From an uncultured Solirubrobacterales bacterium (GTDB lineage Bacteria; Actinomycetota; Thermoleophilia; Solirubrobacterales; 70-9), in assembly GCA_963740845.1 (NCBI GenBank), contig CAVUFM010000018.1, positions 345,056 through 409,055 on the forward strand: a DNA stretch of 64,000 bases, given 5' to 3'. The position numbers were made by a program, and so were the translations under genes. Below the pieces are notes generated by a model that worked only from the letters and a program-made list of their open reading frames with translations, was not told where the DNA came from and searched no databases. Positions 19,829-51,222 of the stretch are shown one piece after another (within the stretch, counting starts at the first letter, position 1; every line of letters begins with the position of its first letter).

Positions 19829-20806
19829 TCAGGCCTGGAGCGGCGAGCGGAAGCGTTCGCGGTACTCGCGCGGGTTGGTGCCGAGCCGGCGACGGAACGC
19901 GCGTCGCATGACCTCGGCGCTCGGGAAGCCGCAGCGGGAGGCGACGTTCTCCAGCGAGCCGCCGTCGGTCTCGAGCAGGGAGCGCGCCCGCTCCACCCGG
20001 ACCCGCTCGACGTAGTCGGCCGGCGTCGTTCCCAGCTCCCGGGTGAAGACGCGGCTGAACTGCCGCTCGGAGAGGTGAAGGCGCCCGGCGAGGGCGCCGA
20101 CGCTCAGGTCCTCCTCGGGATGGTCGGCGATCCAGGCCTGCAGCTCGCGGAGCGGCGGATCCTCGGTCGCGCCGCTCTCCAGCTGGACGGAGAACTGCGA
20201 CTGCCCACCGGGCCGGCGTGCGTAGACGACGAGCATCCGCGCGGTCTTCAGCGCCACCTCGGCGCCGTGGTCCTCGTCGGCGAGCGCGAGCGCCAGGTCC
20301 ATCCCGGCGGTGACCCCGGCCGAGGTGAGCAGGTTGCCCTCGCGGATGAAGATGGGATCCGCGTCGACCTCGACCGCCGGGAACCGCCGCGCGAGCTCGG
20401 GGGCGTGCAGCCAGTGGGTCGTCGCGCGGACGCCGTCGAGGATGCCCGCCTCGGCGAGGAGGAAGGCGCCGCTGCAGACGGATGCGGTGCGGCGGGAGGT
20501 CCGCGACAGGCGGCGGATGCCGTCGATCAGGCGCCCGTCCTCGGCGACCGCCTGGACGCCGAGCCCCCCGGCGACGATCAGCGTGTCGAGCGACTCGACG
20601 TCGCCGATCGCGGCGTCGGCGCGGAAGGAGAGGCCGCTCGAGCTGCGGACGTCGCGGCCGTCGACGGTGATGCAGGTGAGCTCGGGGACGTCGCGGGCGA
20701 AGAGCCCCGCGGTGTGGAGCACCTCCCAGGGCCCGGTGACGTCGAGCGCCTCGACGCCCTCGAAGGCGACGATCCCGATGCGGCGTGGCGATGCGGCTGC
20801 GGTCAT
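19829..20806 (-). CDS. AraC-family transcriptional regulator with N-terminal DJ-1/PfpI-like domain (GlxA type)
   Basis: N-terminal IGIVAFEGVEALDVTGPWEVL...ASVCSGAFLLAEAGILDG...THW; C-terminal HTH_AraC (LSVGALAGRLHLSERQFSRVFTRELGTTPADYVERVRVERARSLL). Confidence 0.85.
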   Translation of the reverse strand: MTAAASPRRIGIVAFEGVEALDVTGPWEVLHTAGLFARDVPELTCITVDGRDVRSSSGLSFRADAAIGDVESLDTLIVAGGLGVQAVAEDGRLIDGIRRLSRTSRRTASVCSGAFLLAEAGILDGVRATTHWLHAPELARRFPAVEVDADPIFIREGNLLTSAGVTAGMDLALALADEDHGAEVALKTARMLVVYARRPGGQSQFSVQLESGATEDPPLRELQAWIADHPEEDLSVGALAGRLHLSERQFSRVFTRELGTTPADYVERVRVERARSLLETDGGSLENVASRCGFPSAEVMRRAFRRRLGTNPREYRERFRSPLQA

Positions 20807-20837
20807 GGCCCGATCATCGGCGGGCGGGCGGTGTCCG

Positions 20838-20945
20838 TCAAGTCACATACCCCACGATTTCCGCCACCCGAGTGCGACGCGCCGGCGGCCCACTCGCAAT
20901 CGGTGGTCCCTGGACCCCTCTTTTGCGAGTTGGTCGGCTACCTAA
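20838..20945. repeat. copy of the dispersed intergenic palindromic element (hairpin module CTCGCAATCGGTGGTC..GACCCCTCT.TTGCGAG plus a partial GATTYCCGCC module)
   Basis: 20893..20929 ctcgcaatcggtggtccctggacccctcttttgcgag is near-identical to 38672..38707. 20856..20873 gatttccgccacccgagtg resembles the gattccgcccggtgg units at 38623 and 47094. Confidence 0.55.
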
Positions 20946-22004
20946 GCGTTGACACGCGGCGCATCCGGCACCTCGGCGTCCGGCCGGCGCCTGCGAACGA
21001 CGAGCGCGACGCCCGCCGAGGGCGAGCGCCAGTGCCCCCGCACCCAGGGCGATCGCCGCCGCGTCCCCGCCTCCCCCATCGCCTTCCTCGCCGGCCGCCG
21101 CTCCAGTGGAGTCGTCTGAGCCATCGTCGTCGCCCTCGGCCTCGGCCTCTGCCGCCCCGACCGCGATCGTTCCCAGGACGCCGTCCCTGGGATCGGTGAC
21201 CTCGACGGCGCTCCCGTCCGCGCTCATCTGCAGGCGGGCCGCCGCGAGTCGGTTGACCGGGACGAACTCGAGGTCGATGCAGAGGGTGACGCCCGCGACG
21301 GTGTCGATCGCGTGGACGAACGGCTCCCCCGGCTTCCCGCCATAGCGGTAGATGTTGCCGCCGTCGTAGAGGGTGTATGCCCAGCGTCCGTCGGGGCTGC
21401 TCGTCCGCGAAAGCGGGAAGCCGCGCATCTCCTCGCCGGGCTCGTTCTCGGGGAGGATCGGATCGTCCTCGAGCTCGCCCGTCGTCAGGTCGAGTCTCCG
21501 CAGTTGGTAGTCCGTCGGGTCCTTCGGTGCCGGGTACTCGATCATGAAGGCGAATCGGCCATCCGGTGAGATCGCGTCGAAGCTGAAGTCCCCGTCGAGA
21601 TCGATCACACGCCGTGACTTCAAGGTCTCCGGATCGATCACGATCATCCTCGTCTCCTTCTGCGGAAAGCTGCGGCGAGGCTTGATCAGCACCAGCGTGC
21701 CGTCGTCATGGGCCAGCCCCGAGGTGCTGCCGTCGAGGGCCACCCCGGGCACCGCATACGCGCCATCGAGCCAGGTGCTCCTCTCGAGCGCGCCGCCGTC
21801 CGCGTTGATTCGCGCCAACAAGGTCTCCTCGCCCTGCGAAACGGCCAGGAAGCGCTGGGAACCGTCCGCGCTGAGCACTCCCTGCGGAGTCGTGTCGAGG
21901 CCACCCGGCACGGGCAGCCCGTCGGCCGTTGCGCCATCCGTCGCCGCCGCGAGGGCGGCTGCTCCCGCCGCGATCGCGATCGCCAGCCTGATTCGGTTCC
22001 TCAT
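20838..22004 (-). CDS. secreted hypothetical protein with signal peptide and a C-terminal Gly-rich/TM/Arg-rich anchor
   Basis: Starts MRNRIRLAIAIAAGAAALAAA. It ends ...GDGGGGDAAAIALGAGALALALGGRRARRS, which looks like a sorting-signal or anchor. The true stop is uncertain because the frame stays open to 20838. Confidence 0.5.
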   Translation of the reverse strand: MRNRIRLAIAIAAGAAALAAATDGATADGLPVPGGLDTTPQGVLSADGSQRFLAVSQGEETLLARINADGGALERSTWLDGAYAVPGVALDGSTSGLAHDDGTLVLIKPRRSFPQKETRMIVIDPETLKSRRVIDLDGDFSFDAISPDGRFAFMIEYPAPKDPTDYQLRRLDLTTGELEDDPILPENEPGEEMRGFPLSRTSSPDGRWAYTLYDGGNIYRYGGKPGEPFVHAIDTVAGVTLCIDLEFVPVNRLAAARLQMSADGSAVEVTDPRDGVLGTIAVGAAEAEAEGDDDGSDDSTGAAAGEEGDGGGGDAAAIALGAGALALALGGRRARRSQAPAGRRGAGCAACQRLGSRPTRKRGVQGPPIASGPPARRTRVAEIVGYVT

Positions 22005-34302: not shown

Positions 34303-35741
<1,439 letters not shown>

Positions 35742-35790
35742 CGGGGCGATGGTAGAGAGCCGCCCGGCTGGGCCGTCGGCTGACGCGTCG

Positions 35791-37334: not shown

Positions 37335-38408
37335 ATGCGGTTGGTCCACGAGAGCGCCGAGCCCGTCGGGGCGGCCCTGGGAGCGCCCTGGGCCCGACCG
37401 CTCGCGGGGACGCTCGACCGGCTCGTGGTGGAGTCCGACCTGCTCGCCGGCAACCCGCTCGGCGACTCCGCCCGCCGCCCGCTCTGGGTCCTGCGTCCGC
37501 CCGGGGTCGATCTCGATCACCCGCGCCCCCTGCCGGTCATCTACGTGATCCAGGGCTTCACGGGCCAGCTCGACTCCTGGGGGAACCGCAGCTTCTTCGA
37601 GCCCACCTACATCGAGCGGATGGACGCGATGCTCGCCTCCGAGGAGTGCCCCGACGCCCTCGTGGTGATGGTCGACTGCTGGACCGCCTACGGCGGCTCC
37701 CAGTTCCTCGACAGCATCGGCACCGGGATGTACCAGTCCTATCTCTGCGACGAGATCGTTCCGTTCGTCGACGAGCGCTACCCGACGATCGCGAGCCGCG
37801 ACGGGCGCGGGCTCGCGGGGAAGTCGTCCGGCGGCTACGGCGCGATGGTCGTGCCGATGATGCGCCCCGACGTCTTCTCGGCGCTGGCCTCCCACGCCGG
37901 CGACGCGCTGTTCGAGCTGACCCTGCCGCCGGGCATGGCGCAGGCCACCCGGGTGCTCCGCGACAACTTCGACTCCTCCTGGGACGTCTTCTTCGAGGCC
38001 CTGAACGCGGGCCCGGACCCGTTCGACTTCGGCCGCTTCGGCGTCCCACTGGAGATGTACGCCTACGGGGCCGCCTACTCCCCCGACCCCGAACGTCCGG
38101 GGCGGGCGCTGCTGCCGTTCCGGCCGGACGGCGGGCTCGTTCCCGAGGTCTGGGAGGTCTGGCTCGCTCACGATCCGGTGCGGATGGCCGCCGAGCACGC
38201 CGACGCCCTGAGGTCGATGCGGCGGATCTACCTGGACGCGGGACGCAGCGACGAGTACTTCCTGGACCTGGGAGCCCAGGCGTTCTCCCGCGAGCTGGCG
38301 CAGCTCGGGGTTGACCACACGCTGGAGCTGTTCGAGGGTCGCCACGGCGGGATCACCTGGCGCTACCCGTTGGCCGTGAAGGAGCTGGCGGTTGCGCTGA
38401 GCGCGTAG
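37335..38408 (+). CDS. putative esterase (alpha/beta hydrolase, esterase D / enterochelin-esterase-like fold)
   Basis: ...PVIYVIQGFTGQLDSWGNRSFF...GRGLAGKSSGGYGAMVV... (GxSxG). ATG at 37335; the GGAGGAGG upstream is 26 nt away. Confidence 0.8.
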   Translation: MRLVHESAEPVGAALGAPWARPLAGTLDRLVVESDLLAGNPLGDSARRPLWVLRPPGVDLDHPRPLPVIYVIQGFTGQLDSWGNRSFFEPTYIERMDAMLASEECPDALVVMVDCWTAYGGSQFLDSIGTGMYQSYLCDEIVPFVDERYPTIASRDGRGLAGKSSGGYGAMVVPMMRPDVFSALASHAGDALFELTLPPGMAQATRVLRDNFDSSWDVFFEALNAGPDPFDFGRFGVPLEMYAYGAAYSPDPERPGRALLPFRPDGGLVPEVWEVWLAHDPVRMAAEHADALRSMRRIYLDAGRSDEYFLDLGAQAFSRELAQLGVDHTLELFEGRHGGITWRYPLAVKELAVALSA

Positions 38409-38529
38409 GGAGGCGAGCGAGAGGCGTTCGTGCCCCTTGCTGCCTGCGGTTGTGCGGGGCTTACGCTCGGCCGGGGGTGTGGTGCGGCCGGTTGGGGCTG
38501 GGGAAAGGGGAGGTGGGACCCGCGGTAGT

Positions 38530-38710
38530 GGTCAGTTGGCGGAATTGCTGCCGCATGCGGTTGTGATTCCGCCCGGTGGCCTCAGGCGCAGGCAGTTGGC
38601 GTGAATTGCTGCCGGCATACGGAGGGATTCCGCCCGGTGGAGCCGACGGCCGACCCGGACCTCTTCACCAATCGCAATCGGTGGTCTATAGACCCCTCTA
38701 TTGCGAGCGG
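38530..38710. repeat. intergenic repeat cluster: two about 30-bp imperfect palindromic units 62 bp apart plus the hairpin module CTCGCAAT..ATTGCGAG
   Basis: 38541..38570 ggaattgctgccgcatgcggttgtgattcc; 38603..38632 tgaattgctgccggcatacggagggattcc, each followed by gcccggtgg. 38672..38707 tcgcaatcggtggtctatagacccctctattgcgag. It sits in the 450-bp convergent spacer between the esterase gene and ftsZ. Confidence 0.6.
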
Positions 38711-38858
38711 TGGGCCTGGGTCGAACCGCCGCGACCTGCCGCAGCGGCGGCGGGTGCCGGGGGTGCCGACCGGCCGCCCTCCCAATGCGAGCGGCAGCGA
38801 GCGAGCGCTAAGGCCGGGCGGCACCCCCGGTGCCCGGCGCCGCGTGAGGGTCCGGCCG

Positions 38859-39941
38859 CTAGTCCCTGAGGAAGGGCGGGATGTCGATCTCGTCGTCGCT
38901 CACCTCGAGCTGCCGGATCTCCCGGTCGCTCGGCGGCTTGACGCCGCGACGGCGGCTGCGGCGGCGGATGGCCTCGGGGCGGCGGGCGAGGAGCTCGAAG
39001 CCCTCGAAGCCGGTGGCGATGGCGGTGACGCGGAGTGCGTCGCCCATCGTGTTGTCGACGACCGCGCCGAAGATGATGTTGGCGCCCTTGTCGGCTGTGG
39101 AGGCCACGACCTCGGCGGCCTCGTTGACCTCGAAGAGGCCCATGTCCTCGCCACCGGTGATGTTGAGGAGCATGCCGGTCGCGCCGTCGATGGCGGACTC
39201 GAGGAGCGGCGAGGAGATGGCCTCGCGGGCGGCGTCCCCCGCGCGGCTCTCGCCGGCGGCGGTGCCGATGCCCATGAGGGCGGAGCCGGCGTCGGACATG
39301 ATCGCCCGGACGTCGGCGAAGTCGAGGTTGATCAGGCCGGGGACGGTGATCAGGTCGGTGATGCCCTGGACGCCCTGGCGAAGGATGTCGTCGGCCTTGC
39401 GGAAGGCCTCGCTGATCGGCTCGCGGCGCTCGACGATGTTGAGCAGCTTCTCGTTGGGAACGATGATCAGCGTGTCGACCTCGGCGCGGAGCTTCTCGAT
39501 GCCGTCGAGGGCCTGCTGCATCCGGCGGCTGCCCTCGAACTCGAAGGGCTTGGTGACGACGCCGACGGTGAGGGCGCCGATCTCCTGCTTGGCGATCTCG
39601 GCGATCACGGGGGCGGAACCGGTACCGGTGCCGCCGCCCTCGCCGGCGGTGACGAAGACCATGTCGGCCCCCTTCAGGGCCTCCTTGATGTCATCGCGGC
39701 TCTCGGCCGCGGCTCCCGCTCCGACCTCGGGCTGACCGCCGGCACCGAGGCCGCGGGTCAGCTCCTGACCGATTGCGAGCTTGACGTCGGCATCGCTTGC
39801 CCGGAGCGCCTGCGCGTCCGTGTTGACGGCGATGAACTCGACCCCTTTGAGACCGGCATCGACCATGCGGGAGACCGCGTTGGTGCCGCCGCCGCCAGCG
39901 CCGACGACCTTGATCACCGCGAGGTAACTGGAAGCCTCCAT
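38859..39941 (-). CDS. ftsZ: cell division GTPase FtsZ
   Basis: [23 protein letters not shown]...[17 protein letters not shown]... tubulin signature; last gene of the dcw cluster; no ftsA upstream. Confidence 0.95.
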
Positions 39942-41834: not shown

Positions 41835-41859
41835 AGCCTCGGCGGTGATCGCGACTCCG

Positions 41860-43285
41860 GCTGACTAACCGGTCGGCGACCCGGAAGACGTCGCCGGCGC
41901 CGATCGTCACCAGGATGTCGCCGGCGCGGAGGTCCTCTCCGGCCAGTGCCTCGGTCGCGGCGTCGAGCCCGCCGAGCCAGCGGACGCGCTTGCCGGGAGC
42001 TGCGTCGGCGGCCGCCTCGGCGACCAGCAATCCGCTCACGCCCTCGAGTCGGCTCCTCGCGGGCGGCGTAGATGTCGAGCACCGCGACCTCGTCGGCGAG
42101 TGCCAGCGCTCGGCCGAACCGGCCCGCCAGCGCCTTCGTCCGCGAGTAGAGGTGCGGCTGGAAGACGGCGATCAGGCGCCCGCCCCGTGGCCTGGGCAGC
42201 TCGCGCAGCGCCCGCAGCGAGGCCTCCACCTCGGTCGGGTGATGGGCGTAGTCGTCGTAGATCAGCGCGCCGTTCCGCTCGCCCTTGCGCTCCAGCCGCC
42301 GGGCCATCCCGGGGAAGCTGGCCAGCGCCTCGATCAGCGCCTCGATCGCCGGCAGGTCCGGGTCGAGCTCACGCGCGGCGATCAGCGCGCCGAGCGCGCA
42401 GGTCGCATCGACGACGTTGTGCAGGCCGGGAACCCCGAGGCGGACGCGCCGCTCGCCGATCGCCTCCGAGATCAGCGTGAAGGTGGCGCCGCCCTCGGCG
42501 GGCTCGATGTCGGTCGCCAGCAGGCTCGCCGCGAGCGGTGGCGGGGAGCCGGGCTCGGTCACCGAGAAGGTCGAGATCACCCCGGCGCCGTCGAGCGCCG
42601 CGAGATCGGTGCCGGCGGGCCGGACCACGGCCGCCGCGCCGGCCGGTGAACCCGGCGAACGCCGCGAGCGAGCTCGCGCTCCCCTCCCCAGTGGGAGTGA
42701 TGGTCGAGCTCGACGTTGGTCACCGCCGCAACCTCCGGGTCGAGCCGGAGGAAGCTGCCGTCGCTCTCGTCGGCCTCGGCGACGACCCAGCCTCCGCCGC
42801 CCCAGGCCGCGTTGGCCGGCGCGCCCTCCGGGCCCGCCTCCCGGCAGCTCGCCGCCGAGCAGGAAGGCGGGATCGGCGCCCGCGGCCGCGAGGCAGTGGG
42901 CGAGCATCCCCGAAGTCGTCGTCTTGCCGTGGGCGCCGGCGACCGCGATCAGGCGCTTCGTCGCGCACAGCTCGGCCAGGAGCTCGCTCCGGTGGAGCTC
43001 GCGCTGACCGCGCTCGCGGGCGCGGACGAGCTCGGGGTTGTCGTCGGGGATCGCCGTGGAGACGACCACGTCGGCGCCCGCGGGCACGAGGTCGGCGTCG
43101 TGGCCGATTCGCGGCTCGATCCCCGCCGCGCGCAGCCGCTCGAGGTAGGCGGATTCGGAGCGGTCGGAGCCCGTGACCTCAGCTCCGAGCGCGTGGCAGG
43201 CGAGCGCGAGCGCGCTCATCCCGGCACCGCCGATCGCGATGAAGTGGAGCTCGCGCCCGGCGAAATCGGCCTCGGTCGGGCTCAT
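41860..43285 (-). CDS. murC: UDP-N-acetylmuramate--L-alanine ligase, frame-split; 3' boundary approximate
   Basis: [27 protein letters not shown]...[19 protein letters not shown]... inside ORF 41768..44371; C-terminal ...[20 protein letters not shown] in ORF 41662..42039. The ATG at 43285 overlaps the murG stop (ATGA). Confidence 0.8.
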
Positions 43286-44371
43286 CCTTCGATCGCCCCC
43301 ATGATCTGATCGGCGATCCGCTCGGCCGCGTCGGGCTTGGCGAGGGAGCGGGACGCGACCGCCATCCGCTCGAGCTCGCTCGGGTCGCCGAGCAGCTCCG
43401 TCAGCTCGGCGGCGAGCCGCTCCGGCGTCAGGTCGGCGTCCTCGATGACGCGAGCGGCGCCCGCGCGCTCCATCCACCGCGCGTTGGCGTGCTGGTGCAT
43501 GGCCGAGGCGTAGGGATAGGGAACGAGGACGGCCGGCTTGCCCGCGGCGGTGAGCTCGAAGACCGAGCCGCCCGAGCGCGCCAGGACCAGATCGACCGCG
43601 GCGAGGGCGTCGCCGAGGTCGGGCTCGTACTCGAGGAGCGTGTAGCGCTCGACGCCCTCCAGCTTCCCGGCGAGCTCCGCGTAGTCGCGCGAGCCGGCGA
43701 TGTGGAGCACGTGGAACGAGCGGTCGGCCGCCGCGCCTCCCGCGCCGAAGGCCTCCGCGGCTGCGGTGTTGATCGTCAGCGCGCCGAGGCTGCCGCCGAA
43801 GATCAGGACGGCGGGGTCGTCGGGGCCGATGCCGAACCGCTCGCGCGCGGCCTCGCGGTCCGCCTCGAGGATCGCCGCGGGCACCGGTCTCCCGGTCACG
43901 AGATAGCGGTCGCCCTCGCGGCCCTCGATCGGGAAGGCGAGGCAGACGCGCCGGGCGCGCGGTGCGAGCAGGCGGTTGGCGAGGCCGAGGTGGCTGTCGG
44001 CCTCGGTCAGCACGATCGGCAGCCCGCGGGAGATCGCGGCCGCCCCGACCGGCGCGGCGACGTAGCCGCCGCCACCCATCACGGCGTCGGCCCCGCGATC
44101 CCGGAGGAGCTTGCGCGCCACCCGCACGGCCCCGACTGCCCTGGCGACCGCGCCGGCGGCACGAATCGGGTTCTTGCGGTCGATGCCCGCGGACGTTGAG
44201 GAAGTCGATCTCGTAGCCGGCCTCGGGCACGAGCTTCGCCTCGGCGCGCTCGCGCGTCCCGGCGAAGGAGACCTCGGCGCCGCGCTCAGTGAGCGCGTCG
44301 GCGACGGCCAGCGCTGGAACCACGTGCCCGGCTGTCCCGCCGGCTGCGATCACCACTCGCGGCACGGGCAC
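43282..44371 (-). CDS. murG: UDP-GlcNAc:undecaprenyl-PP-MurNAc-pentapeptide GlcNAc transferase, frameshifted near 44130-44200
   Basis: N-terminus MPVPRVVIAAGGTAGHVVPALAVADAL (ORF 41768..44371); the rest is in ORF 43282..44127 (...GGGYVAAPVGAAAI...LVTGRPV...). Confidence 0.85.
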
Positions 44372-44374
44372 CTC

Positions 44375-45627
44375 CCGCGCGCGGACCGGTCCGGCCTCCG
44401 TCGATGACCGCGAACGGCTCCCGCGGGCGTCGCCTCGGCACGGCGGCGCTCGATGCTGAGCCGCCGTTGGCGATGTTGAGCAGCAGGCCGACGGCCGCGA
44501 GGGTGACGATGAGGCTGCTGTTGCCGTAGGAGACGAATGGGAGCGTGACTCCGGTCAGCGGCGCGAGGCCGAGAACCGCGAAGAGGTTGATCGAGGCCTG
44601 GACCAGGATCATCGCCGTCAGGGCGGCGGCGAGCAGGCGACCGTAGCGATCCTTCGCGTGCTGAGCGGTGCGGAAGCCCGCGTACCCGAACATCATGTAG
44701 AGGCCGCAGAGGAAGGTGATCCCGAGCAGGCCGAGCTCCTCGCCGATGACCGCGGCGATCATGTCGGTGTGGGCCTCGGGCAGGTAGAAGGCCTTCTGGA
44801 CGCTCTCGCCGATCCCGGTGCCGAAGATCCCGCCGGAGCCGAGCGCGATCGACGCCTGCATTCCCTGGAAGCCGGCCCCCGAGGCGTCCGCGCTCGGGTT
44901 GACGAAGCTGGTCAGGCGCGCCATCCGGTACGGCTCCATCAGCACGGCGAGGAAGACGATGAAGAGCAGCGCGCCGCCGAGCATCGCGAGATGCCGCAGC
45001 TTCGCGCCCGCCGCGATCAGGAGCGCCGTGACCGAGACCGCGGTGACCATGCCGGTTCCGAGATCGGGCTCGACGACGATCAGCATGCAGACCGCGCCCG
45101 CGACGAGCAGGAAGGGCGAGAGCCCGCGGAGGTCCCGGGTCATCTGTCGGGCGCTCGGCGAGCAGGTGCGCGCCGTAGAGCATCAGCGTGACCTTGGCGA
45201 TCTCGGACGCCTGGATCTGGACCGGCCCGAGGACGATCCAGCGCTGGGCGCCGTTGACCTCGGCCCCGATCACCTTCGTCGCGAGCAGCAGGAGGACGGC
45301 TCCGGCGAGCAGGAGCGGCGTCAGCTTGCGGACGGCGCCGAGCCCGTAGCGCGCCAGGAAGTGGAGGGCGAACAGGCCGAACGCGCCGAACATCAGCGTG
45401 CGCTTGAGGAAGAACGCGCCGTCGCCGTTCTCACCGAGGAGCGCTGCGCTCGAGCTTGCGCTGAAGACCATGACGACGCCGAACGCGAGCAGGCACATCG
45501 TCGCGGTCAGCAGGAGCTGGTACTCGAGGGGATGAGACGACGTCTTCGGCTTGGCCTTCGCCTTCTTCCCGCCCTTGGCGCGGCGACGGCCGAAGCCGCC
45601 GCGGAGGGAGCCGACGGCGCCGCTCAC
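44375..45627 (-). CDS. ftsW: SEDS-family peptidoglycan glycosyltransferase FtsW, frameshifted near 45150
   Basis: ORF 44350..45627 (TM-rich N-terminus, QLLLTATMCLLAFGVVMVFSASS) and ORF 44286..45143 (...GTGIGESVQKAFYLPEAHTDMIAAVIGEELGLLG...). Confidence 0.85.
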
Positions 45628-46989
45628 GATGCGGCTCCCAGATCAGCGACCAGGTCGCGGAAGCTGTCGCCGCGCTCCTCGTAGTCGCGGAAGGCGTCGA
45701 AGCTGGCGCAGGCCGGTGCGAGCAGCACGGTCTCGCCGGGCACGGCGGCGTCAGCGGCGGCGCGGACGGCGGCGTCGAGGTCGCCGACCTCGAGGAGCGG
45801 GACGCCGGCCGGACCGAGGTCCTCGCGCAGGCGCTCGGTGGCGTCGCCGATCAGGTAGCAGGCGGTGCAGTGGGCGGCGACCGCCGGGCGGAGCTCCTCG
45901 AAGCCCCCGCCCTTCAGGCTGCCGCCGAGGATCGCGTGGACGCCGGTGCCGAACGCCTCGAGCGCGGCGGCCGCGGCGGCGACGTTGGTCGCCTTGGAGT
46001 CGTTGACGAAGACGACGCCGTCGAGCTCGCGGACGCGCTCGAGCCGGTGCGGGACACCGGCGAAGGTGCGCAGGCCGCGGGCGACGAGCTCGCGGTCGGT
46101 CCCGGCGGCGAGCGCCGCCGCGGCGACCGCCATCGCGTTGCGGACGTTGTGCTCGCCGGCGAGCGGCAGCTCCTCGCGGCGGACCAGGACTCCCGCCGGA
46201 GTCGCGGATCTCGCCGTCGGCGTAGGAGATGAAGCAGCGCTGCTCGTCGACGCAGGCGTCGATCCCGTAGGGCTCGCGGATCGCCTCGCCGGGAAGGGCG
46301 ACCTGGCCGACGATCTCGTCGTCGGCGTCGACGATCGCCGTGTCGTCGGGGCTCTGGTTGGCGAAGATGCGGAGCTTCGCCTCGGCGTAGGCGGCGAGGG
46401 TGCCGTGGCGGTCGAGGTGGTCGGGGGTCACGTTGAGCAGCACCGCGACGTCGGGCGCGAACGCAACCGAGTCCTCGAGCTGGAAGGACGAGCACTCGCA
46501 GACCACCGTCGCCTCGGGGTCGAGCGCGCCGTCGAGGGAGGCGAGCGGGGTGCCGACGTTGCCGGCGACGGCGACCTCGTGGCCGGCCTCGCGAAGGGTG
46601 TGGCCGAGCCACTCGGTGACGGTGGTCTTGCCGTTCGTCCCGGTCACCGCGAGGAAGCGATTGGGGAGCAGGCGCCAGCCGAGCTCGAGCTCGCCGATCA
46701 CATCGAGGCCGCGCTCGCGCGCTGCGGCGATCACCGGCGCATCGGCCGGAACCCCCGGGCTCTTCACCACGGTCCTCACGTCGTCGAGCAGCCCTGTCCC
46801 GTCACCATCCAGTTGGAGTTCGACGCCGAGGTCCGCAAGCCTCCCCGCATCGGGAGGATTTCCGGTGTCGGTGCCGATGACGCGCTCGCCGCGCGCGCGC
46901 AGCGTCACGGCGGCCGCGACGCCCGATCGAGCCAGCCCGACGACGAGGTAGGGACCGGGTGGCAGAGGTGGGCGCGGGCTGGTGGACAT
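45624..46989 (-). CDS. murD: UDP-N-acetylmuramoylalanine--D-glutamate ligase, frameshifted near 46150
   Basis: MSTSPRPPLPPGPYLVVGLARSGVAAA...AVTGTNGKTTVTEWLGH (ORF 45751..47097) and a C-terminal domain in ORF 45624..46133. Confidence 0.85.
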
Positions 46990-47064
46990 AACTGCGATCC
47001 CTTTCGCCGGGAAGGCGCGGGCTCCCCCCTGTCGAGGCGGAACTCCGGGGCGCCGGTGGGGCCG

Positions 47065-47165
47065 GGTCGGCGGATTTACTCCGGCATATCGGAGCAATTC
47101 CGCCCAGTGGGGCCGGCCGCACGCAGTGAGTGGAATCGCTACCGCATGCGGTAGCGATCCCGCAG
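47065..47165. repeat. intergenic repeat inside the dcw operon (between mraY and murD): two about 30-bp palindromic units 61 bp apart, the second containing a perfect 24-bp palindrome
   Basis: 47071..47100 ggatttactccggcatatcggagcaattcc then cgcccagtgg. 47132..47161 ggaatcgctaccgcatgcggtagcgatccc, with atcgctaccgcatgcggtagcgat a perfect palindrome. Same architecture as 38541..38632. Confidence 0.6.
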
Positions 47166-47179
47166 ACTGCGGCCGCCCG

Positions 47180-48205
47180 TTAGATGCCGATGTTGTTCTG
47201 GAAGAGCGTGTATCCGATCCCCGCGAACACGGCCGCGACGATCCAGAAGCGGAGCATGATCTTCGTCTCCGACCAGGCGAGCATCTCGAAGTGGTGATGG
47301 ATCGGGGCCATCAGGAAGACGCGCCGGCGGAAGCTCTTGAACCAGAGGACCTGGATCGCGACCGAGAGCGCCTCGATCACGAAGATGCCGCCGAGGATGA
47401 TCAGGAGCACCTCGGTCTGGGTCATGATCGCGAACGCGCCGACCGCTCCTCCCAGGCCCAGTGAGCCCGTGTCCCCCATGAATATCTGGGCGGGGAACGC
47501 GTTGAACCAGAGGAAGCCGACCGAGGCGCCGACGAAGCAGGCCGAGAGCAGTGCGAGGTCCTCCTGGCCGGTCGTGATCGTGATCGCCAGATAGGCGAGG
47601 AAGACGATCGCGCAGCAGCCCGCGGCGAGGCCGTCGAGCCCGTCGGTGAGGTTGACGCCGTTGCTGGCGCCGGCGAGCACCAGGAACGTCAGCACCATGT
47701 AGACGACCGGGCCGAAGTAGATGTCGGCGTCGAAGACGCGGATCTGCAGGCGCGCGTCGAGGCCGACCTGCTCGAAGGCGAGCCACCAGAGGGCGACCGC
47801 GAGCAGGATCTGGACGGTCAGCTTCCAGCGCGCCGAGAGGCCGAGCGAGCGCCGCTTGATGATCTTGATGTAGTCGTCGGCGAACCCGAGGGCGGCGCTG
47901 CCCATCGCGATGCCGAAGACCGCGAGGCTCTCGGTGTCGCGGTCGGAGAGCACGAGATAGGGCACTGCGATCGCGGCGAAGATGATCAGCCCGCCCATCG
48001 TCGGCGTGCCCGCCTTGGAGTGGTGCCCCTCGGGCCCCTCCTCCCGGATCTGCTGGCCGAACTCGCGCTCGCGGAGCTTCTCGATGAACTTCGGCCCGAG
48101 GAAGATCGTGATGAGCATCGCGGCCATCCCCGCGATCAGGATCGCCCCGCGGTCCACCGGGACGGTGCTCAGGCCGTCGGTCTGAGCGAGCAGCAGGGCG
48201 GTCAT
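47180..48205 (-). CDS. mraY: phospho-N-acetylmuramoyl-pentapeptide transferase
   Basis: 341 aa polytopic membrane protein with MraY motifs (...DDYIKIIKRRSLGL...NAFPAQIFMGDTGSL...HHHFE). Confidence 0.95.
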   Translation of the reverse strand: MTALLLAQTDGLSTVPVDRGAILIAGMAAMLITIFLGPKFIEKLREREFGQQIREEGPEGHHSKAGTPTMGGLIIFAAIAVPYLVLSDRDTESLAVFGIAMGSAALGFADDYIKIIKRRSLGLSARWKLTVQILLAVALWWLAFEQVGLDARLQIRVFDADIYFGPVVYMVLTFLVLAGASNGVNLTDGLDGLAAGCCAIVFLAYLAITITTGQEDLALLSACFVGASVGFLWFNAFPAQIFMGDTGSLGLGGAVGAFAIMTQTEVLLIILGGIFVIEALSVAIQVLWFKSFRRRVFLMAPIHHHFEMLAWSETKIMLRFWIVAAVFAGIGYTLFQNNIGI

Positions 48206-51107: not shown

Positions 51108-51149
51108 CCAGCCCGATTCTAGGTTCGGAGGTGGCGGCTCTTAGATAAC

Positions 51150-51222
51150 CGCGGATCCTCGGCTTCGCGTCCGGTCCGGGTGACCCCGGATCCTCGGCTT
51201 CGCGTCCGGTCCGGGTGGAGGC
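51150..51222. repeat. perfect 2 x 35 bp tandem direct repeat in the ftsI-murE spacer
   Basis: 51153..51187 ggatcctcggcttcgcgtccggtccgggtgacccc and 51188..51222 ggatcctcggcttcgcgtccggtccgggtggaggc; the first 30 nt are identical. Confidence 0.7.

Follow-up and report, generated by a model that had tools for sequence, protein, structure and literature searches.

We analysed a 64,000-nt stretch of high-GC DNA (contig CAVUFM010000018.1; hereafter the window) from an uncultured Solirubrobacterales bacterium of the class Thermoleophilia, with the spacer downstream of the cell-division gene ftsZ, and the hairpin repeats that it contains, as the main subject. The minus strand of the window carries the division and cell wall (dcw) gene cluster, which comprises a penicillin-binding protein gene, murE, murF, mraY, murD, ftsW, murG, murC, murB, ftsQ and ftsZ; the FtsZ protein is 94–97% identical to proteins in metagenome bins labelled Solirubrobacterales. 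An esterase-family gene converges on ftsZ and, as the initial annotation of this DNA had described, a convergent spacer of 450 nt (38409-38858) lies between both stop codons. The locus is organized as follows:

38406-38408, plus strand: stop codon (TAG) of the esterase-family gene
38409-38532, no strand assigned: left part of the spacer, G-rich on the plus strand (esterase sense), with a GC skew of +0.3 to +0.48
~38413-38431, no strand assigned: small hairpin directly 3' of the esterase stop, predicted by folding
38533-38580 (core 38533-38579), plus strand: unit c1 of hairpin family A, tip CCG-CATG-CGG, 3' tail CCGGTGG
38593-38641 (core 38593-38640), plus strand: unit c2 of family A, tip CCGG-CATA-CGG
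38664-38714 (core 38670-38707), plus strand: unit B1 of hairpin family B, stem TCGCAAT/ATTGCGA with an asymmetric internal loop and the inner palindrome GGTCTATAGACC
38738-38850, no strand assigned: large GC-rich branched hairpin of ~100 nt, with 32-nt arms (38744-38775 and 38812-38843) that are 88% complementary
38859-39941, minus strand: ftsZ, stop codon 38859-38861

The spacer is non-coding, because its GC content is flat across codon phases (0.71, 0.71 and 0.74, against a third-position GC content, GC3, of 0.94–0.95 in both flanking genes) and none of the three open reading frames (ORFs) inside it found a match in a Pfam search; with neither GC3 periodicity nor Pfam match, coding potential was discarded. 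It is also structured beyond expectation, as the initial annotation had supposed, with z-scores of −5.0 on the plus strand and −5.8 on the minus strand (all fold z-scores were computed against dinucleotide shuffles). Compared with 212 other 450-nt segments and adjusted for GC content, the plus strand of the spacer is the most structured (z −3.2), equalled only by segments overlapping it. This structure is indeed stacked: the hairpins c1, c2 and B1 and the large hairpin stand side by side. With its start 15 nt 3' of the ftsZ stop codon, the large hairpin has predicted folding energies of −89.8 (plus strand, z −6.2) and −81.4 kcal/mol (minus strand, z −4.4), and is a probable ftsZ 3'-end or terminator hairpin, one that lacks a U-tract. 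A terminator consensus scan of 38000-39300 on both strands returned 0 sites, the bases 3' of each hairpin being GC-rich with no U-tract; the suggestion of stacked terminators may nevertheless be regarded as a reasonable functional reading of the predicted folds.

The left part of the spacer has a different character. A G-quadruplex-type motif, GGGG-CT-GGGG-AAA-GGGG-AGGT-GGG, occupies 38494-38517 on the plus strand, where it has only three counterparts in the window; on the minus strand, the ftsZ sense, positions 38432-38532 are 51% C and 23% G. By its composition, the C-rich, G-poor RNA that would be transcribed opposite the motif in the ftsZ sense would resemble a Rho-loading tract. A 19-nt inverted match between 38471-38489 and 38812-38830 (79%) is weak and at chance level.

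Family A consists of a ~60-nt unit with a 47-nt hairpin, present in four copies at two loci within the window. The first two copies correspond to the tandem imperfect direct repeat reported in the initial annotation and to the palindrome reported within each repeat: c1 and c2 recur with a 60-nt period, their cores are 88% identical (43/49 aligned columns, with two single-base indels), and both cores contain GGAAT-N20-ATTCC or a near copy of it, forming hairpins of 15–16 bp with a base of GGCGGAAT/ATTCCGCC, a tip of CCG-CAT(G/A)-CGG and a CCGGTGG tail. Tandem Repeats Finder, run at a score of 30, did not report the pair because it comprises just two imperfect copies with indels. Judged by this degree of identity, c1 and c2 may represent a recent tandem duplication.

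The second pair is absent from the initial annotation and came to light by reading around a weak match. It lies 8.5 kb upstream in the same dcw operon, in the spacer between mraY and murD, and repeats both the 60-nt period and the head-to-tail arrangement of c1 and c2:

mraY stop codon (47180-47182) to murD start codon (46987-46989), minus strand: 190-nt mraY-murD spacer of the dcw operon
47064-47111, plus strand: unit c3, in the same orientation as c1 and c2
47123-47170, plus strand: unit c4, a near-perfect 38-nt palindrome with tip CCG-CATG-CGG, ending 9 nt from the mraY stop codon

The relationship between the two pairs is neither a chance nor a circular result, because the profile of each pair alone recovers the other. 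A profile built from c1 and c2 only retrieved c3 and c4 with E values of 1e-4 and 1.5e-3 in a 128-kb search space, and one built from c3 and c4 only retrieved c1 and c2 with E values of about 1e-5 and 3e-3. No other match in the 64 kb had an E value below 0.3 in these searches, apart from weaker reverse-strand matches to the same four units. Consistent with this, a covariance model of the four units (R1), run with filters off, yielded them as its only family A finds in the window; a weak match at 35707-35780 (20.6 bits) was dropped, as family A sequence is not present there.

Folding and covariation describe these units as stem-loops. On the plus strand c1 folds at −25.8 kcal/mol (z −3.4) and c2 at −21.8 kcal/mol (z −2.3), compared with −16.9 (z −1.9) and −14.7 kcal/mol (z −1.6) on the minus strand. 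Unit c3 folds best on the minus strand, which is the operon sense (−25.2 kcal/mol, z −5.7), and c4 reaches −31.2 kcal/mol on the minus strand (z −7.6) and −31.5 kcal/mol on the plus strand (z −6.4). Across the copies the hairpin base and tip are conserved and changes in the middle of the stem are compensated: from c1 to c3 a G.U pair becomes C-G and a C-G pair becomes G-C, and RNAalifold found 4 pairs altered on both sides. Since c3 is 78% identical to c2 and only 61% identical to its neighbour c4, the second pair is not a simple recent tandem duplication. The 5' flanks of c1 to c4 read CAGTTGG, CAGTTGG, GGGTCGG and CAGTGAG, with no consistent GTAG, and a GGTGG tail occurs on the 3' side of three of the four units.

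Single-base differences between units call for caution, given the frame changes observed in essential genes nearby. The murD frame shifts at ~46140-46200, splitting the gene over ORFs 45751-47097 and 45624-46133, and the ftsW frame shifts at ~45120-45180, splitting it over ORFs 44350-45627 and 44286-45143; gcvP and the murG-murC region likewise appear in the window as ORF fragments or fusions. Such mid-gene changes suggest single-base indel assembly errors of the kind also found in the long-read contigs L007 and L008, and the indels that separate the units, such as the additional T and G of c2, may likewise be errors.

Family B, a 37-nt hairpin, was defined from the hairpin quoted in the initial annotation, tcgcaatcggtggtctatagacccctctattgcgag, which we located at 38672-38707 (−23.9 kcal/mol, z −5.0) within unit B1. 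Its second copy is:

20886-20936, plus strand: unit B2, −26.8 kcal/mol, z −4.9, in a stretch of non-coding DNA upstream of an AraC/DJ-1-type regulator gene (minus strand, 19829-20806)

B2, at a distance of 17.8 kb, was found by blastn with B1 (89% over 36 nt, E 2e-5) and also by a family B covariance model (R2), which detected only these two copies. The cores share 33 of 37 positions, and three of the four differences fall within the four central bases of the inner palindrome, including a palindrome-preserving double change from T-A to C-G; according to our calculation, random placement would put at least three of the four differences there with a probability of ~0.002. A hairpin on the relative contig L017 (14018-14062), which resembled family B by eye, was undetected by R2 and was dropped.

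Comparison with relatives showed that both family A-bearing junctions are variable across the clade and that the sequence which they hold in the window is confined to its lineage. The contigs of the nearest relatives share only 79–87% DNA identity with the window across syntenic genes, and at both the ftsZ/esterase and the mraY/murD spacers homology ends exactly at the gene ends on both sides. The ftsZ/esterase spacer is 22 nt long in the closest relative, L016 (FtsZ 97% identical), 105–127 nt in L007, L009, L010 and L017, and 330 nt in L008; set against this range of 22–127 nt with one spacer of 330 nt, the 450 nt of the window agrees with the earlier description of the region as unusually long and structured. 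GC-rich hairpins, one or more, occur in each relative's spacer except the 22-nt spacer of L016. Profile and covariance-model searches of nine syntenic loci (~165 kb) recovered no copy of family A or B, and the comparison of ftsZ-downstream regions that the initial annotation had proposed thus found the repeat block in no relative examined.

The same spacer has received other sequences elsewhere. In L008 it contains an extra 83-nt hairpin-bearing segment that is otherwise found downstream of gcvH in L017 and L008, and this segment includes the gcvH stop codon and last bases. A transposable element and an additional gene occupy the two junctions in further relatives:

L011, 11080-12165, directly after the ftsZ stop: IS630-like element that encodes a DDE_3 transposase and has terminal inverted repeats (TGTCCTGAGTC) and a TA target duplication
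L018, 3012-3503, and L019, 2297-2933: DUF2510-family gene between mraY and murD

The IS630-like element is missing from L009, which is otherwise near-identical to L011. These independent gains in one spacer, the 83-nt segment of L008 and the element of L011, fit the earlier idea that the region serves as a landing pad. In the more distant L018 and L019 there is no esterase gene and gcvT directly follows ftsZ. The mraY-murD spacers of L009 (3580-3660) and L011 (3590-3665) hold a different imperfect palindrome of ~75 nt (GCTGACTCACGGTCAACGCG...CGCGTTGACGCGGAGTCAGC); a strong hairpin thus recurs at this junction, with a sequence that is not conserved.

Searches beyond these loci did not link the repeats to any described family. 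At gathering score, Rfam returned nothing in the whole window or in the loci of seven relatives (L007-L011, L016 and L017), and nothing at E ≤ 10 across 38300-38950; around c3 and c4 (46950-47200) it gave only far-sub-threshold generic hairpin (miRNA-precursor) matches, and around B2 (20750-21050) only chance-level ones. Known RNA families were accordingly discarded for the spacer. Exact-pattern scans for family A in GTDB (one genome per species) and JGI metagenomes retrieved only unrelated perfect palindromes or half-matches without the 5' arm, and those for both families in viral contigs retrieved nothing. A blastn search of the spacer against plasmids and phages yielded one short unrelated match to a Streptomyces plasmid (E 3e-3) and no phage match. 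A nested intergenic palindrome of ~95 nt containing GGGAATGCGCCCCGCATGCGGGGCGCATTCCC in a Microthrixaceae metagenome-assembled genome from an unrelated actinobacterium (L006, 4900-4990; R1 score 29.6 bits) was excluded from family A because the search pattern itself had selected it, and is probably unrelated. Two other repeat classes were set aside on their architecture: the units do not form a CRISPR mini-array, in which near-identical repeats of 23–47 nt alternate with unique spacers of similar length, being 47 nt long and only 88% identical with gaps of just 12–13 nt and two units per locus; and read from the sequence, the core sites are wrong for an integron attC site. As regards traits of miniature inverted-repeat transposable elements or insertion sequences, no target duplication is evident at the pair boundaries. 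Literature searches returned no report of such repeats for Thermoleophilia or Solirubrobacterales.

Taken together, the evidence leans, somewhat beyond an even chance, towards a lineage-specific build-up of interspersed hairpin repeats, similar to the REP, SPRITE and MIRU types, in a permissive convergent spacer, where they would act as bidirectional terminators or structures protecting transcript 3' ends. Most likely, the repeats are elements of a selfish or duplicative nature and serve at the same time as hairpins at transcript ends. In the scenario we propose, the spacer would have grown by collecting short hairpin repeats beside a native ftsZ 3' hairpin; families A and B would have spread by transposition or templated copying, with local extension by tandem duplication, as for c1 and c2 with their 88% identity. 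Once settled, the repeats would be kept as stable stem-loops, which, placed after stop codons, could halt or pause transcription and block 3'-to-5' exonucleases. The spacer would then form a two-sided barrier in which ftsZ transcripts meet the large hairpin first and esterase transcripts meet c1 and c2 first, and between mraY and murD the c3/c4 pair would act as punctuation in the operon transcript.

The positions of the hairpins agree with such a role. Hairpins stand 9–15 nt past stop codons, c4 past mraY and the large hairpin past ftsZ; c1 and c2 lie nearer the esterase stop, and two stronger hairpins stand between ftsZ and these units. The better-folding strand is also the expected transcribed one, namely, by z-score, the operon sense for c3 and c4 and the esterase sense for c1 and c2. 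This strand match fits RNA-level hairpins that would act on transcription and 3' ends from both sides.

Several observations weigh against this reading. The strand-matching argument draws on two independent loci. Among the 450-nt segments of the same sequence, the minus strand of the spacer is ordinary after GC adjustment (z −0.6), so that in the ftsZ sense the 450 nt overall show no more structure than the average for this genome. Termination stays conjectural because the hairpins all lack a U-tract. That the families are dispersed genome-wide is assumed only, because each is represented by two loci and the two of family A belong to a single operon. Neither a transposase nor a target-site duplication nor a terminal signature came to light, the ORFs of the window not having been systematically screened for a Y1 transposase, and the pairs are in direct orientation, not inverted as is typical of REPIN doublets and BIMEs. 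Finally, because the relatives are distant, the comparison demonstrates lineage specificity and not recent insertion.

An alternative interpretation takes family A not for a mobile repeat but for an RNA module dedicated to cis-regulation of the dcw operon, in which tandem hairpins after mraY and ftsZ would be processing, stability or attenuation sites and, perhaps with the help of a specific RNA-binding protein or RNase, would set how strongly the operon segments are expressed relative to one another. It is the most interesting of the rivals, given that the four copies share one orientation, are all located within a single operon or at its end, and keep an identical 60-nt spacing at both loci. 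The conserved base (GGCGGAAT/ATTCCGCC) and tip (CCG-CAT-CGG), the covarying middle of the stem and the best folding of c3 and c4 in the operon sense would equally be expected of such a module. However, the minus strand encodes most genes in the window, which leaves the shared orientation with little weight, and c1 and c2, besides standing behind two stronger hairpins, fold poorly in the operon sense (z −1.9 and −1.6). As, moreover, none of the relatives examined has the units at the corresponding junctions, whose spacers there are unrelated or carry other inserts, we consider this explanation unlikely. A stronger proposition, which we rate as quite improbable, is that family A represents either an undescribed punctuation element specific to the dcw operon of this Solirubrobacterales lineage, a fixed-spacing hairpin pair whose conserved base and tip would be recognized by a dedicated protein or RNase so as to set the levels of the mraY, murD-to-ftsZ and ftsZ 3' segments, or a new class of head-to-tail mobile hairpins in Thermoleophilia moved by a single-strand (HUH-type) transposase.

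Similarly doubtful is an origin by local copying only, whereby a terminator hairpin would have undergone tandem duplication, and recombination or templated repair would have carried copies from one spacer to its neighbours, with neither a dispersed family nor mobility. The adjacency and 88% identity of c1 and c2 accord with this mechanism, as does the lack of copies in the collections scanned, and the L008 segment, with the gcvH stop and last bases included, looks like segmental copying and unlike an element with its own ends. At the second locus, however, c3 matches c2 better (78%) than its own neighbour c4 (only 61%), a misfit with simple local tandem duplication, and the second family B copy lies 17.8 kb away in an unrelated context.

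The palindromes could also be double-stranded DNA binding sites for a regulator, nucleoid protein or gyrase, with pairs bound cooperatively at 60-bp spacing. Their GGAAT-N20-ATTCC symmetry with conserved outer half-sites, the fixed spacing of ~60 bp and the binding of IHF and gyrase by BIME/REP clusters (PMC3184786) speak for this possibility; yet palindromes of 36–47 nt with a variable, covarying centre and G.U-type asymmetries fit a single-stranded hairpin better than an operator, and their location at gene 3' ends and not at promoters, together with their absence in relatives, makes such a function very improbable. Least probable of all is an independent small RNA, as the initial annotation had entertained, for instance one derived from the ftsZ or the esterase 3' untranslated region: a long non-coding region with strong local structure on either strand would suit it, but Rfam gave no match even at E = 10, a consensus scan of the spacer region detected no promoter-like site and the terminator scan no terminator-like one, and the content of the spacer, which consists of repeat copies, is conserved in no relative.

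A further hairpin family, family C, was recognized at another junction of the dcw operon, and related hairpins were found in relatives:

51148-51217: 35-nt unit duplicated in tandem, the copies 97% identical, at the junction between the penicillin-binding protein gene and murE
L010, 14434-14484: family C-related hairpin
L017, 13822-13873: family C-related hairpin
L008, 14086-14134: family C-related hairpin
L008, 11358-11411: family C-related hairpin

In these relatives, which represent three other species, the hairpins have in common a 16-nt loop, CGGACGCGAAGC(C/G)GAG, on stems that differ in sequence but remain complementary. Their positions are downstream of gcvH or upstream of gcvP, with one in the L008 ftsZ/esterase spacer. 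No Rfam family matches them; loop conservation combined with covarying stems in different species may point to a functional RNA or to a hairpin bound by protein. Elsewhere in the window, a tRNA-Leu(GAG) call by ARAGORN at 42725-42811 on the minus strand falls within the murC coding region, which aligns with the murC of relatives over 41848-43250, and is probably a false positive.

Small interspersed hairpin repeats have been well studied in Proteobacteria, pneumococci and mycobacteria. Thermoleophilia, and Solirubrobacterales among them, are abundant and mostly uncultured soil actinobacteria, and the feature described here, ordinary in kind, is undescribed for Solirubrobacterales as far as our literature searches show. 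If the units are both mobile and transcript-end structures, they would exemplify how spacers in the essential and conserved dcw/ftsZ operon are remodelled within a lineage. Copy-number variation of the 60-nt and 35-nt units could provide strain markers, and the repeats constitute a hazard for assembly and annotation. The value of the finding is descriptive, and no new mechanism is opened by it. The efficiency of terminators that lack a U-tract is disputed, and no hairpin in the spacer has the combination of stem-loop and U-tract that defines a canonical intrinsic terminator.

Because the units are arranged head-to-tail and have no clear GTAG head, no bridging ORF and no U-tract, we have not filed them under REP/BIME, SPRITE or MIRU, with each of which they share some properties. 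REP and BIME sequences are extragenic palindromes that cluster with a bias to convergent gene ends, stabilize upstream mRNA and attenuate transcription (PMC3184786). The hairpins described here are likewise GC-rich imperfect palindromes of 35–47 nt, located outside genes and side by side at gene 3' ends, in convergent spacers and within operons, with compensatory variation in their stems. The four family A units in particular are stem-loops of 15–16 bp with −21 to −31 kcal/mol on the better strand (z −2.3 to −7.6), situated outside genes past the ftsZ and mraY stops. In contrast to REP/BIME neighbours, which alternate or are inverted, family A pairs are head-to-tail, with all four best profile matches on the plus strand; a GTAG/GTGG head was not recognized, the copies number four at two loci in 64 kb, and the host is a Thermoleophilia actinobacterium, whereas REP and BIME are known from Proteobacteria. 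Typical REPs are dispersed through their genome in tens to hundreds of copies, have the GTAG/GTGG-type tetranucleotide immediately 5' of the palindrome and are associated with a RAYT (REP-associated tyrosine transposase) gene that has REPs on its flanks.

SPRITE elements resemble the family A and B hairpins in position and presumed RNA-level role, but are ~105 nt long with a terminator-like tail (PMC3184786); the hairpins here lack a U-tract and have no sequence relationship to them. MIRUs are mycobacterial units of 40–100 bp that form short head-to-tail arrays in operon spacers, are co-transcribed and have no counterpart at homologous sites in related species (PMC3184786). Family A parallels this arrangement in its 60-nt period, in its two head-to-tail units per locus and in the location of the mraY-murD pair within an operon. 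MIRUs differ in not being primarily long hairpins and in carrying short ORFs that overlap the flanking stop and start codons; a bridging ORF of this type was considered and ruled out, as the 190-nt mraY-murD spacer contains in the operon sense only ATG-CGG-TAG and ATG-CCG-GAG-TAA. The comparison with mycobacterial MIRUs is one of description. Unlike a simple terminator, for which one hairpin would suffice, the ftsZ/esterase spacer contains four, three of which are copies of repeat families. With I-shaped or bidirectional terminators, these hairpins share stable GC-rich stems directly past stop codons that are usable from both strands, and the large hairpin downstream of ftsZ fits this description.

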